DNA from: Alkanindiges illinoisensis DSM 15370
GTDB taxonomy: Bacteria; Pseudomonadota; Gammaproteobacteria; Pseudomonadales; Moraxellaceae
Direction: 5' to 3'
Assembly: GCF_000619845.1 (NCBI RefSeq)
Contig: NZ_JHUX01000004.1
Coordinates: 60,001-92,000, forward strand
Length of the DNA: 32,000 nucleotides
This document shows, one piece after another, positions 24,025 through 30,166 of this stretch (position 1 is the first letter of the stretch; each line of letters begins with the position of its first letter). Under the pieces are notes generated by a model. That model made no database searches, was not told the origin of the DNA, and saw only the letters and a list, made by a program, of their open reading frames with translations. The position numbers and the translations under genes are program-made.

Positions 24025-24101
24025 CGGGGCGTAGCGCAGCCTGGTAGCGCACTTGCATGGGGTGCAAGGGGTCGAAGGTTCAAATCCTTCCGTTCCGACC
24101 A
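24025..24101 (+). tRNA. tRNA-Pro (anticodon GGG)
   Basis: 77 nt folded by hand. Acceptor CGGGGCG/CGTTCCG (two G-U pairs), D-arm GCGCAGCCTGGTAGCGC, anticodon stem CTTGC/GCAAG with loop AT-GGG-GT, T-arm GAAGG-TTCAAAT-CCTTC, and an encoded CCA end. Confidence 0.95.
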
Positions 24102-24104
24102 ATA
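24057..24104 (+). repeat. attL core: the 3' 45 nt of tRNA-Pro plus 3 nt
   Basis: atggggtgcaaggggtcgaaggttcaaatccttccgttccgaccaata is identical to 30119-30166. Similarity continues imperfectly for about 13 more nt (10/13). Confidence 0.95.
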
Positions 24105-24168
24105 TAATCAATAAGTTAGATCAAAAATAAGAAAAACAGAAAAAGCAAAACGGTTAAATTTTAATCAT

Positions 24169-24195
24169 TCACCTACACATTCACCTACACTTTTG
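24169..24195 (+). repeat. Putative arm-type integrase binding sites (P' arm): tandem CACCTACAC units
   Basis: The 27-bp tcacctacacattcacctacacttttg is identical to 29968-29994. Internally it is two 10-bp units (minus strand GTGTAGGTGA-at-GTGTAGGTGA) with 12-bp periodicity, 64 bp from the core. Confidence 0.6.
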
Positions 24196-24254
24196 ATAAG
24201 GCTTAACTGCTATTAATAAAATTTCTTTAATTAATTGCTATATTCAAATTTTAC

Positions 24255-24638
24255 TTAAACCAGCTCAACTTTAAACAGCCTGTCAAACTCAGCATTGTTT
24301 TGTTCTTTGCGTCTGGCTTGTGGGGTCTCTAGTCCTAACAGTTTGGCTTTACTCATCGTTGCGCTAATTGCTGCGTTACACTGGCCATTCGCCAATGCCT
24401 GTACTCTCGTGGTTTCTAATTCTGTCAGTATGTCATGTAGCGTTATTTGTATTTCCTGGCTGGCCTGTTGCTGCCTTGCCTCAATGCTGCTTTTGATCTG
24501 GGGCTGCCTTAATAGTCGGCTGGCCTGCTGCTGGGCTGTTCTTGCGCTATAGCCTGCACTGATGGCGGCTTGCGTACCATTGCTGGATATAAGGTACTCG
24601 TCAATAAAGCGTTGCTGTATCGCGCTTATGCGGCTCAT
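24255..24638 (-). CDS. terS: Phage terminase small subunit (Terminase_2/P27 family)
   Basis: 127 aa. QQRFIDEYLISSNGTQAAISAGYSARTAQQQASRLLRQPQIKSSIE matches the conserved N-terminal HTH of Terminase_2 small subunits (FxxEYLxxxNxTQAAIxAGYSxxTA...LL). No large subunit is anywhere in the window. Confidence 0.88.
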   Translation of the reverse strand: MSRISAIQQRFIDEYLISSNGTQAAISAGYSARTAQQQASRLLRQPQIKSSIEARQQQASQEIQITLHDILTELETTRVQALANGQCNAAISATMSKAKLLGLETPQARRKEQNNAEFDRLFKVELV

Positions 24639-25266
24639 GGCTGGCCTGCCCCTAGCAATTGAAAGCTGATCTGATTATAGCCTGTTTTGCTTTGTTGTTA
24701 TTTTCAGCTATTCACGCCATGCGGCAAGGTTTTTCGGATATCAAAACGTGTTTAAACAGGTAAAGCCCTGTTCAGGTTTTAACGGTCTGGCTCTAGGTTC
24801 GCACCCAAGTTCGCACCAAAACCGCTATTTTTTGAGTTCACAAAAAAGGCAATGTTCAGGTTCAAAACCCGATAAAACGGCTTTTTAAAAGACTACCCCA
24901 TGAAAGGCGGGTTTTTGAGTTTTGGGAGTCCATAAAAAGGACGGGATAGCGGGAATCACACGGCTATTTTCGGACGCCTTTACGCGCGCGTACTGCTCCG
25001 AAAATTCACGCCCTTAGTAAATTGCAGGGTGTACGTGCGGGGCAGTTGAATTTTTAGACATCGTAGAACCTGATAAAACCTATTGTTTAACCCTCTACCC
25101 TCAGCTTTAAGACAAGCTAGATCAAACGGCTGTTAACTTTTGCAAAAGGGATTTTTTTTATACATGGGTTGGCCAGTGGTCTAGGATAAACAAGCCGCTA
25201 TACATTGAATATGCCCCCCCTCAATAACCCCTATACCTATGGTAGATTCTAAGAAGGTGTACAGAT

Positions 25267-28432: not shown

Positions 28433-28580
28433 AAAGCACCCTAATGCTAACTCCTAAACCTTATAAAACTTGATACTTAAAAACAGATTGTTAGGTAAAT
28501 AAGCGTTTAGGGAATACTTACTTGTCGGCTGGCCTGCCTATACCTAACAAGATAAATATAGCATGTGATCTAGTTGTTGA

Positions 28581-29909
28581 TTAACCTAATTTATTAAATG
28601 GAATAATCTCGCCTTGCATGGCATTAGGGTCTGACAAATAGGCCAGCCGTGCGCCTAGCAGTTCAAACGCGCGTTTTTGCTCTATGGCTGCGTCCCACTG
28701 GTTATAGGTCAGGTTTAACATGTCATCATCAGTATGGTTTAAGCACTTGCGCCTGATCTCGTTACTCACGCGCTGGCTGGCCATTACATTTGAAGCAGTA
28801 CGGCGTAGATCATGCGCTGTCCAGTGGCCGCCTTCCATTACCAATGACGTGTTATCACTGGCACGGCCATTAATAGGGTTAGTGTTTTGGCGGTCTGTAA
28901 ACTGCTTGTTGAGACTTTTAACATCCACATGGCTTGAGCGGTCACGGTTTGGAAATAACCACACGGCATCATCCACAAACTGAAAAAGCTGGTTAAAACA
29001 GTTCACCGTAAAATCTGACAAGTAAATTAAATGTTCCTTGCCGTTTTTGGCATTTTCTTTTGGGATTTTCCACATTCGCGCCTGTAGGTCGATATGCTTA
29101 CGCTGGGCTTTTAGTAGCTCACCTACTCGCGCTGCTGTAGCCAGTAAGATCAAAGCAGCAAGTTTAGCTTTTGGTGTCAGTGAACAATTGGGTAAAGCCG
29201 TTTGTAAAAAATGGATTAATTCATGGTCTTTAAAATGCCGTGTCTTAATATTGGCCTTGCCACTAAAGGCAATCTTCTTTAAGTGGCTGGTTGGGTCATT
29301 TTCAAGTAAGCCTATCCCAATGCCATAGCCGTACATTTGCCGGATATAGCCAAGTAAACGGCCAGCCATGACTGGTGAACCACGTTCAACCACATTTTGG
29401 GTTACTTGTGCTATTTGCTGGCGTGTCACTTCATCAGCGTAGAGCTTGCCAAGAATCGGCAACATATCGTTTTTAAATAAATCATCGACAAACTTTCCGC
29501 CATCTTTGTGCTTGCTAATTACCGCTTTAAACCAACGGTCATAAAGCTGTTGCATGGTCAGGCGGTTATTCAATAGCTGTTGCTCACGTTCACTTTGCTG
29601 GCGTGCAAGTTCGGCTTGCTGTAACTGTTCTAATCTCAGGCGCTCACGTTCGGCTAATGGGTCAAGTGTTGTTTCAGCGTTTCGCCTTTCCATGTTTAAA
29701 CGGCTGGCTTCAGCACGTGCCGCAACCAGTGACATATCAGGATAGTAGCCAAGCGGTAGCCATCGGGTTTTATTGTCGATCTTATAACGAAAGTAGAATC
29801 GTTTTACGCCTGTTGGTGTCACTTCAAGCACCAAGCCCTCACCATCGGACAAGGTGGTTTTCTTTTCTACCTGAATTTTCTTTATTTTTAATTCAGTCAA
29901 TTTGCCCAT
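28581..29909 (-). CDS. int: Tyrosine recombinase, P4-type integrase with an N-terminal arm-DNA-binding (DUF4102-like) domain
   Basis: 442 aa. The N-terminus LSDGEGLVLEVTPTGVKRFYFRYKIDNKTRWLPLGYYPDMSLVAARAEA is typical of the DUF4102 arm-binding domain. Catalytic motifs are present: ATAARVGELL (Arg), HDLRRTASNVM (HxxR) and LNHTDDDMLNLTYNQ (His...Tyr). Confidence 0.93.
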   Translation of the reverse strand: MGKLTELKIKKIQVEKKTTLSDGEGLVLEVTPTGVKRFYFRYKIDNKTRWLPLGYYPDMSLVAARAEASRLNMERRNAETTLDPLAERERLRLEQLQQAELARQQSEREQQLLNNRLTMQQLYDRWFKAVISKHKDGGKFVDDLFKNDMLPILGKLYADEVTRQQIAQVTQNVVERGSPVMAGRLLGYIRQMYGYGIGIGLLENDPTSHLKKIAFSGKANIKTRHFKDHELIHFLQTALPNCSLTPKAKLAALILLATAARVGELLKAQRKHIDLQARMWKIPKENAKNGKEHLIYLSDFTVNCFNQLFQFVDDAVWLFPNRDRSSHVDVKSLNKQFTDRQNTNPINGRASDNTSLVMEGGHWTAHDLRRTASNVMASQRVSNEIRRKCLNHTDDDMLNLTYNQWDAAIEQKRAFELLGARLAYLSDPNAMQGEIIPFNKLG

Positions 29910-29967
29910 TTTTTAATGCCTTTGCGTCGCCTGTTGCAGATATTGCAAGGGGTTGATAGGCCAGAAC

Positions 29968-29994
29968 TCACCTACACATTCACCTACACTTTTG
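29968..29994 (+). repeat. Putative arm-type integrase binding sites (P arm), the second copy of the 27-bp repeat
   Basis: Identical to 24169-24195. It lies between the int start codon (29909) and the attR core, 124 bp from the core. Confidence 0.6.
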
Positions 29995-30118
29995 CATAGG
30001 TTTTAATGACATTCTATAGGACGGCATGAAATAAGCAATTAAGTTAAAAACATTAAAAACAATCACTTAGTAATTTAATGAAACTGCATGATACTGTATA
30101 AAGTCATCATTATCATTT

Positions 30119-30166
30119 ATGGGGTGCAAGGGGTCGAAGGTTCAAATCCTTCCGTTCCGACCAATA
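30119..30166 (+). repeat. attR core: duplicated 3' end of tRNA-Pro (a non-functional partial copy)
   Basis: 48/48 identity to 24057-24104. It lacks the 5' 32 nt of the tRNA. Confidence 0.95.

Follow-up and report, generated by a model that had tools for sequence, protein, structure and literature searches.

The DNA analyzed here is a stretch of 32,000 nucleotides from Alkanindiges illinoisensis DSM 15370 (contig NZ_JHUX01000004.1, positions 60,001 to 92,000), referred to as the window in the following. The host, a member of the Moraxellaceae, was named by exact protein look-ups, and a preliminary description made from the letters of the window had correctly guessed a Moraxellaceae-like host. 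The window contains an island of 6,062 bp at a tRNA-Pro(GGG) gene. With moderate confidence, we read this island, which is known from sequence alone, as an intact, recently mobile integrative element of 6.06 kb that behaves as a minimal phage satellite resembling the phage-inducible chromosomal islands (PICIs). The element appears to be a mosaic of an island backbone and a portable packaging cassette of about 1 kb. The preliminary description had proposed a very small satellite that hijacks a helper phage. The discrete island with integrase (Int) and AlpA genes, the genuine stand-alone small terminase (TerS), and the absence of virion genes all stood up to analysis; that the island is a satellite, we infer. 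The portable cassette, consisting of a sequence resembling a packaging (pac) site and terS, and a contig possibly representing the excised attP form are the most interesting leads.

The island is bounded by perfect 48-bp direct repeats with a start-to-start spacing of 6,062 bp, exactly as previously described (string identity; ARAGORN). Each repeat is made up of the 3′-terminal 45 nt of the tRNA and three further nucleotides (ATA), and imperfect similarity extends to 62 nt. A perfect 48-mer repeat within 32 kb is far beyond chance expectation. According to ARAGORN, tRNA-Pro(GGG) is the sole tRNA of the window. The motif TCACCTACAC occurs in four exact copies in the window, arranged as tandem pairs that flank the att core, and this count was reached by no shuffled sequence. 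The copies are probable arm-type integrase sites. The chromosomal flanks are ordinary, with EamA and DusA genes on the left and a gene for a secreted tyrosinase on the right.

A search of the JGI metagenomes with the 48-mer revealed five unoccupied sites (L143–L147; handles of this kind denote the loci used for comparison), in which an intact tRNA-Pro gene is directly followed by AAATCAA and a terminator hairpin. The attR core plus flank of the window matches these sites at 55 of 55 positions in L143, L144, L145, and L147 and at 54 of 55 in L146. Because the sequence behind the core of the unoccupied sites corresponds to the attR flank of the window, the geometry of the insertion is fixed. The sixth locus with the 48-mer, L142, represents the attR end of another island, which encodes an integrase of 478 aa, a 319-aa protein, AlpA, and proteins of 140 and 910 aa (3153–5942), with the identical core at 6124–6171. 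Its integrase is 29% identical to that of the window. Since this unrelated island uses an identical core, the tRNA-Pro site appears to be a hotspot for int/alpA islands. At the same dusA–tRNA-Pro site, a 12.9-kb sibling (L002/L097/L098/L099) has the same core, the same terS, and an int region with 95% nucleotide identity, the Int products of the window and of L097/L099 sharing one 90%-identity cluster. In the slot of orf447, the gene next to int in the window, this sibling carries hsdR-hsdM-hsdS, a type I restriction-modification (R-M) system, and two unknown genes. A further island, L087, has incomplete copies of this att core at its ends, shares the adjoining arm sequences, and probably occupies the same tRNA-Pro site. 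In view of the sibling with other cargo, the other islands on the core, and the unoccupied sites, the island is neither fixed nor immobile. The preliminary description had suggested looking for empty tRNA-Pro sites and variant islands, and both were found. It would have given up the satellite if the same 6 kb were conserved and immobile in all relatives, which is not the case, or if virion genes were contiguous with it in related genomes; the siblings have none.

The excision (attP) junction had likewise been predicted, and one public contig, L004 (Logan SRR27257951_898269, 1,023 bp), carries exactly that junction at the level of the assembly graph. It corresponds to window positions 24832–24057 joined to 30118–29872 and runs from terS through the terS-side arm (119 of 120 positions identical) and the core (48/48) into the int-side arm (197/200), with only 61 matches in 200 positions to the 5′ half of the tRNA. 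L099 (SRR18577062) opens with the entire core and continues into the int arm, which implies that the graph has no branch from the core to the tRNA. In L003, obtained from the same run, the sequence breaks off after 30 nt of the core. We regard L004 and L099 as graph-level hints of circular, concatemeric, or tandem forms. A further candidate for a circle, L001 (Logan, isolate run, 6,074 bp), was rejected. It equals window positions 24075–30148, that is, the 6,014 bp of unique sequence together with 30 nt from either repeat, as produced by a break in the k=31 graph.

All credible genes between the repeats are located on the minus strand, in the order int, orf447, alpA, small open reading frames (ORFs), a Rep-like gene, iterons, ORF-free DNA, and terS (Table 1). 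The ORFs of the window were searched against the families of Pfam, PHROGs, NCBIfam, and PADLOC. None of these collections gave a family match to a capsid, portal, tail, lysis, large terminase (TerL), primase, or helicase protein, in agreement with the preliminary description. The family searches also supported the gene order given there, except that one of the small ORFs, orf62, is doubtful. The four tightly overlapping small ORFs reported between alpA and the iterons did not hold in full: the Rep-like ORF and that of the winged helix-turn-helix (wHTH) protein are separated by a gap of 35 nt, and the doubtful orf62 is one of the four. The statement that the small middle genes match nothing proved wrong, as they encode an HTH_39 protein and an initiator of the RepA_N/lambda-O-like type with recognizable relatives.

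The terS call was verified by the Terminase_2 family, by a profile comparison with the PDB, by Foldseek, and by the ratio of nonsynonymous to synonymous substitutions (dN/dS). NCBI, too, names the product "terminase small subunit." The profile matched the DNA-binding domain of SF6/SPP1 G1P (3ZQP, E=3e-16). In the AlphaFold2 model (pLDDT 80), a helix-turn-helix (HTH) DNA-binding domain is combined with a long helical oligomerization hairpin, and the last ~20 aa are disordered. The best structural matches in Foldseek were all small terminases (3ZQQ with a probability of 1.0; 4ZC3 with a TM score of 0.91). Compared with two variants, terS showed a dN/dS of 0.19–0.27. Thus, terS is a functional gene under purifying selection. 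No TerL gene adjoins it in the element. Close relatives of TerS are very rare, with 98%, 96%, and 83% identity, followed by values of at most 58%, and a TerS profile search of genome contigs returned only generic distant TerS proteins (≤60% identity, N-terminal domain), with no source species and no close relatives. Four contexts were recovered for the closest TerS relatives (window, L002/L097, L100, and L005). In each, the position of terS is downstream of the replication module, and a search of the neighborhood gave no TerL; three of the four show alpA. In contrast, an Acinetobacter variabilis prophage has, immediately behind a gene of the same TerS family, those for a TerL of the Terminase_3 family and for a P22-like portal protein.

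The ORF-free DNA preceding terS, previously given as 780 bp, is indeed present and comprises exactly 779 bp (24639–25417). Its terS-proximal part forms a conserved noncoding module, which is found constantly just upstream of terS in L100, L002, L003, and L004, whichever replication module is present. Across differing replicons and att sites, the noncoding module and terS have nucleotide identities of 87%–96%; for the copy in L100, the values are 87% for the module and 96% for terS. In two of three pairs, the module diverged less than the synonymous sites of terS (0.08–0.13 vs. 0.30 and 0.03–0.11 vs. 0.25). A tandem ACCTGTTTTC repeat varies among near-identical cassettes, with four copies in L003, three in L002, and two in L100, and is degenerate in the window (24862–24885). 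The alternative that the module encodes a structured noncoding RNA was dropped: its folding was no better than that of shuffled sequences (z scores of −0.66 and +0.46), and an Rfam scan (E≤1) returned nothing besides the tRNA. The module fits best a cis-acting DNA site, most plausibly pac. The noncoding stretch of ~580 bp and terS constitute a portable cassette of about 1 kb. An exact search with an invariant 34–37-mer of the cassette gave 0 matches in IMG/VR and the JGI metagenomes.

Two islands with primase-type replication modules carry the same arrangement. In L100, genes for a Toprim+DUF927 primase-helicase (828+ aa) and orf190 precede terS at a non-tRNA chromosomal site; in L005, alpA and a gene for a Zn_Ribbon_Prim+DUF3987 primase are followed by a 1.3-kb gap and terS, whose product is 51%–58% identical. 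The module of L002 contains an insert of ~940 bp (8621–9565), which harbors what is left of the C-terminus of a primase like that of L100 (identity of 63% over 54 aa; E=8e-24). Because of this remnant, the insert shows the probable origin of the cassette, namely recombination from primase-type islands. The insert is also rich in GT(N)AC(N) repeats and has GAATTTTCGGAACAGTACG at both edges, resembling a recombination joint.

The Rep-like ORF comprises 154 aa. Its start has been called at 143 aa (NCBI) and at 102 aa (another gene call), and the true start is probably internal to the ORF. NCBI names the product "replication initiation protein." A profile of the family yielded weak but repeated matches in the PDB to the RepA_N initiators 4PTA, 4PQL, 5KBJ, and 4PT7. 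For the AlphaFold2 model (pLDDT 80), the top Foldseek matches were the same RepA_N initiators, including the Rep–iteron DNA complex 5KBJ (probabilities of 0.84–0.98, TM scores of 0.4–0.5). The protein is also 44% identical to "replication protein O" of the GenBank record PP003913. Five of the six matches to TGRACGCA in the window fall within 126 bp (25269–25394), and no DnaA boxes were found near these iterons. In the sibling L002, the Rep gene is 67% identical at the nucleotide level and a different repeat, CTGTAC, occupies the iteron position, which is what co-varying pairs of initiator and iteron would produce. The iteron cluster is a presumed origin.

Homologs of the Rep-like protein reside in small islands whose genes run from int through a post-int gene, alpA, and small/wHTH genes to rep and variable genes. 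Between rep and att, L087 carries a gene for a 477-aa protein, a Type ISP R-M enzyme, and a gene for a 199-aa protein; terS is absent. L089–L094 carry a DUF6387 gene and others, also without terS. In L095 from Acinetobacter vivianii, AAA_13 and a type I R-M system are the neighbors of a Rep remnant. L088, whose Rep protein is 68% and whose integrase is only 24% identical to the window counterparts, has genes for a coupling protein (TrwB_AAD_bind, TraG-D_C) and for a Replic_Relax protein; the matches to both exceeded the Pfam cut-offs. The record PP003913.1 (L141, 16,187 bp) was deposited as "Pseudomonas phage vB_Pae_U1, complete genome." It represents a region predicted by VIBRANT that adjoins tRNA-Thr and contains int, a cox/AlpA-like gene, small genes, and the gene for the Rep-like "protein O," besides a fragment of a primase and Rhs genes; virion genes are absent. 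We rejected it as evidence for particles, as it is a VIBRANT prediction and not a virion genome; probably, it is an island of broadly this type that bears a wrong label. A different integrase gene (393 aa) was observed in L096 (8429–9882), whose DusA is assigned by NCBI to Alkanindiges hydrocarboniclasticus. It is located 118 bp upstream of dusA, its neighbors include a PyocinActivator-family gene, genes for a Dcm methylase and Vsr, and more genes, and the contig ends just past dusA; L096 looks like a dusA-targeting island. The element of the window is better described as a common Rep-type backbone plus a pac-like/terS cassette acquired from primase-type PICI-like islands.

According to the model that we propose, the backbone (Int, the variable post-int gene, AlpA, the wHTH protein, and the RepA_N-like initiator with its iterons) would provide for integration and excision at tRNA-Pro(GGG) and for autonomous replication of the excised circle. 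A helper phage would trigger alpA. AlpA and Int would then excise the element via the 48-bp core and the TCACCTACAC sites on both arms, and Rep would fire at the TGRACGCA iterons. TerS would bind the repeats upstream of its own gene, with pac placed as in SPP1/SF6, and recruit the TerL of the helper, and the DNA would be packaged by the headful mechanism as concatemers into full-size helper capsids. Concatemer packaging is proposed because capsid-size genes are absent and siblings of 6.1 and 12.9 kb carry the same cassette. Helper dependence, the pac function of the module, the recruitment of TerL by TerS, and concatemer packaging are what we infer. In SPP1-type phages, pac is located at or upstream of terS. 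TerS-mediated packaging has a precedent in PICIs, including the pathogenicity islands of Staphylococcus aureus (SaPIs) (PMC6092414). [quoted passage not shown] R-M systems occupy the cargo hotspots of the siblings, as is the case in known satellites. More tentatively, and with considerable doubt, we suggest that the pac-like module and terS form a self-contained, exchangeable mobilization cassette, which would make satellites that phages can transduce out of unrelated int/AlpA/replication islands, including defense islands. The cassette and a conjugative module (relaxase plus coupling protein, as in L088) would be able to replace one another on this backbone, and islands would switch between hitch-hiking on phages and on plasmids by the swap of a single module.

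Several observations weigh against a TerS-dependent satellite. The searches yielded no helper phage: in INPHARED, the phage proteins closest to TerS are 40%–46% identical, a TerS search of IMG/VR gave distant relatives only (at best 69% over an N-terminal segment of 51 aa), and neither the cassette DNA nor the att core is present on any phage or viral contig searched. TerS stops ~25 aa short of its nearest longer relatives (152–170 aa), and its last ~20 aa are unmodelled; for these reasons, binding of TerL is putative. Since islands with related Rep proteins exist without terS (L087, L089–L094) and one island with a related Rep protein, L088, has a relaxase and a coupling protein, terS is not intrinsic to the Rep-type backbone. 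In the pair of window and L100, the noncoding divergence is not lower than the synonymous divergence. Given the primase remnant retained beside it in L002, the cassette could be a relic of recombination. Finally, L004 originates from a k=31 graph assembly, in which pruned chromosomal branches of low coverage could fake a traversal of attP.

Some of these points would equally fit an integrative cargo or defense island that is not packaged via its own TerS, the cassette being a passenger from a primase-type PICI that was kept as a relic or for interference with phages, for instance by titrating or misdirecting their TerL. Such abortive packaging would make the role of terS one in defense and not in transfer. 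Islands with related Rep proteins carry R-M and other cargo, often without terS, and terS occupies the slot between rep and att that holds the Type ISP R-M enzyme in L087. L002 has retained the C-terminal primase remnant next to the cassette, the C-terminus of TerS is shorter than that of its nearest longer relatives, and known satellites do interfere with their helpers through packaging proteins (PMC11417361). However, purifying selection on terS rules out a dead relic, and a long noncoding module co-conserved with terS on three backbones is expected of a cis site such as pac but needless for a decoy protein. Moreover, interference and self-packaging coexist in known satellites. We consider such an island unlikely, though still a serious competitor.

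The plasmid-type character of the RepA_N-like initiator and its iterons, together with the coupling and Replic_Relax proteins encoded by L088 with its 68% identical Rep, would also suit an integrative mobilizable element or an integrated small plasmid moved by a conjugative helper, with terS irrelevant to transfer. Yet family searches found neither relaxase nor coupling protein in the element itself, and the integrase identity of only 24% makes L088 a distant relative. The similarity to PLSDB plasmids does not go beyond 69 bp: in a blastn search with the whole element, this match was the only one and had no significance, and the corresponding search against phages gave no match at all. This explanation is improbable. 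Even less probable, to the point of being hardly credible, is a decayed prophage in which int, regulators, replication gene, and terS were left over from a complete temperate phage, despite the phage-type functions of int, the AlpA/Xis-like gene, the O-like replication protein, and terS and despite a related island of 16 kb having been deposited as a "phage." The 48-bp repeats match perfectly, both sides have intact arm sites, the ORFs are all intact with dN/dS well below 1, and the 779-bp gap holds a conserved noncoding module instead of gene debris. Virion genes are not contiguous here or in the siblings, terS adjoins att without terL, and the "phage" record is a VIBRANT prediction lacking virion genes. 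Thus, both conjugative mobilization and prophage decay are poorly supported.

A minimal PICI-like satellite, the reading that we favor, agrees in many respects with the Gram-negative PICIs (EcCICFT073, PmCI172-type; Fillol-Salom 2018) and the TerS-encoding SaPIs. Shared features are a site-specific integrase with its att site, an AlpA-type activator, the one-directional order of int, regulator, replication, origin, and packaging gene, and a presumed iteron-type origin directly after the replication gene. The element further shares the stand-alone terS without terL, the absence of virion and lysis genes, and places for accessory genes behind int and toward the packaging end. It differs from them in that a primase or pri-rep homolog is missing, its slot being taken by a nonhomologous RepA_N/lambda-O-like wHTH initiator, and in that no match to capsid-morphogenesis or interference families (cpm/ppi/rpp-type) was obtained. 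At 6.1 kb compared with a median of 9.5 kb, the element has roughly half to two-thirds of the typical size, and its host belongs to the Moraxellaceae (genus Alkanindiges). A count by hand against the SatelliteFinder model as described in PMC10085698 gave three of the five PICI core components, whereas at least four of five are needed (Type A or B). In this model, terS is a core component, whereas it is optional in the PICI definition of 2018. The element would function in the manner of a TerS-type PICI, yet it would not be classed as such.

The preliminary description had compared the element with the PICMIs of the Vibrionaceae. These integrate next to fis, have the core trio int, alpA, and primase plus iolg, and are explicitly devoid of terS (PMC10803314). 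The size of ~6.1 kb, int and alpA, the lack of capsid-remodelling genes, and large noncoding regions are shared, as would be packaging of concatemers by the headful mechanism. However, the element resides in tRNA-Pro(GGG), lacks a primase, and has terS, and no sequence relationship exists beyond the generic int/alpA families. On these grounds, the analogy fails and we rejected a classification as PICMI. Families typical of P4-like satellites (psu-delta-sid operon, epsilon, alpha primase) had no match in Pfam or PHROGs. Among the primase-type TerS islands, L100 has the same cassette and L005 the same layout (alpA, replication gene, a gap of >1 kb, terS); they differ from the element in their primase-helicase replication module (828+ aa) and, in the case of L100, in the non-tRNA site. 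The N-terminal HTH and the helical core of TerS match SPP1/SF6 G1P (3ZQP/3ZQQ/4ZC3), and the proposed pac likewise lies upstream of terS and adjoins it; in contrast to G1P, TerS of the element is a shorter protein of 127 aa that lacks a terL gene as partner, and its binding site is a proposed one. The Vibrio cholerae PLE shows the same topology of origin, noncoding pac region, and packaging genes and depends on the TerL of its helper. Its packaging proteins Gpi, GpsA, and GpsB are, however, unrelated to TerS, and PLEs have 18–19 kb and mimic the pac site of ICP1.

The remaining genes of the backbone are less informative. For the low-GC gene orf447, no family was found in Pfam, PHROGs, PADLOC, or NCBIfam, and none of the defense-system models matches. 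An indexed search of 5.8 billion sequences returned the protein itself only; a full HMMER search gave nine remote relatives, which are partial and domain-less. The C-terminal ~130 aa (coiled coil plus tail) are common to the post-int genes of L087 (BLASTP L087_329, 6e-8) and L088 (L088_237, 9e-5). Because of this resemblance, orf447 appears to be a gene whose position is conserved while its N-terminus varies. To judge from its appearance, the protein is modular and rapidly evolving. Each of its remote relatives matches one segment only, either N-terminal, middle, or C-terminal. In the alpA leader (26963–27095), a hairpin with 8-bp arms, ATGCCCTT...AAGGGCAT, is located directly ahead of the alpA start and is kept in L087. 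This hairpin and the palindrome of the operator-like region are candidate control sites for induction. The doubtful orf62 (26608–26796) has no match in the families searched, was not called by the gene caller in L001, is missing in the siblings, and is probably spurious. Translation from an internal ATG would give a peptide of 44 aa, whose signal-like hydrophobic segment ends in the lipobox-like LTTC.

Table 1. Features of the island and its integration site, with positions in the window (strand "." where no orientation applies)
Feature	Position	Strand	Basis and remarks
tRNA-Pro(GGG), intact, integration target	24025..24101	+	ARAGORN; Rfam tRNA, 58.5 bits
attL core, 48 bp	24057..24104	.	Same as 30119–30166; 48-mer also at unoccupied tRNA-Pro sites of metagenome loci L143–L147
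Probable Int arm-type sites, 2 x TCACCTACAC, terS-side arm	24169..24190	+	Conserved in L002, L087, L099
terS, small terminase, 127 aa, SF6/SPP1 G1P type	24255..24638	-	Pfam Terminase_2, 1e-21; phrog_51
Conserved noncoding module, proposed pac region	24639..25219 (~580 bp)	-	87%–94% nucleotide identity to L100, L002, L003, L004
Sigma-70-like promoter upstream of terS, ATAACA-16-TATAAT	24674..24701	-	10/12 consensus match only; invariant in 5/5 aligned cassette copies
Module repeats of the ATGTTCAGGTT type	24762–24778, 24846–24862		
Module repeat GTTCGCACC, x2	24797–24820		
Module 9-bp inverted repeat ATTTTCGGA/TCCGAAAAT	24966–25005		
Module repeats of the AACCTGAAC type and A-tracts			Also within the module
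Iteron cluster, probable origin	25260..25402	.	Five TGRACGCA, of which four are direct and one is inverted, with A-rich spacers; adjoins the Rep-like gene on its downstream side
Rep-like winged-helix initiator (RepA_N/lambda-O-like)	25418..25882	-	phrog_18020 "replication initiation O-like," 9e-6; weak Pfam RepA_N and MarR
wHTH protein (HTH_39), conserved backbone gene	25918..26385	-	PF14090, 1.6e-11; same-position homologs in L087 (52% identity) and L002 (44% identity)
orf86, small protein	26351..26611	-	phrog_16250, 1.5e-5; called in L001; absent from L087
alpA, excisionase/transcriptional activator family	26735..26962	-	PF05930, 3.4e-7; phrog_2790; 73% identical to L087 AlpA
Operator-like region upstream of alpA	27056..27095	-	Two 20-bp tandem repeats including the perfect palindrome TTCCAAATTGGAA (27056–27068); palindrome kept in L087
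orf447, low-GC near-ORFan	27089..28432	-	GC ~31% vs. ~43%–50% around it
Tyrosine integrase, P4-type architecture	28581..29909	-	Pfam Arm-DNA-bind_3 + Phage_int_M + Phage_integrase; PHROG
Probable Int arm-type sites, 2 x TCACCTACAC, int-side arm	29968..29989	+	Exact repeats
attR core, 48 bp	30119..30166	.	Next 7 nt, AAATCAA, are the native sequence downstream of the tRNA
attB, unoccupied form			tRNA + AAATCAATGATTT...

A literature search yielded no description of such elements in Alkanindiges and, for the Moraxellaceae, only predicted PICIs in Acinetobacter. If confirmed, the element would be among the smallest satellites that encode their own packaging specificity, and the first characterized one in Alkanindiges. 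If the cassette indeed acts as an exchangeable mobilization unit, the element of 6.06 kb would come close to the minimal gene set of a satellite, consisting of int, alpA, rep plus origin, and pac plus terS. As it falls below the component threshold of the detection model, such elements and their siblings with R-M systems have probably been annotated as anonymous islands or mislabelled as prophages, as exemplified by PP003913. A portable cassette of pac and terS would represent a unit with which to ask for the minimal cis and trans functions required to hijack a headful phage, and it would also bear on how defense islands gain transducibility.

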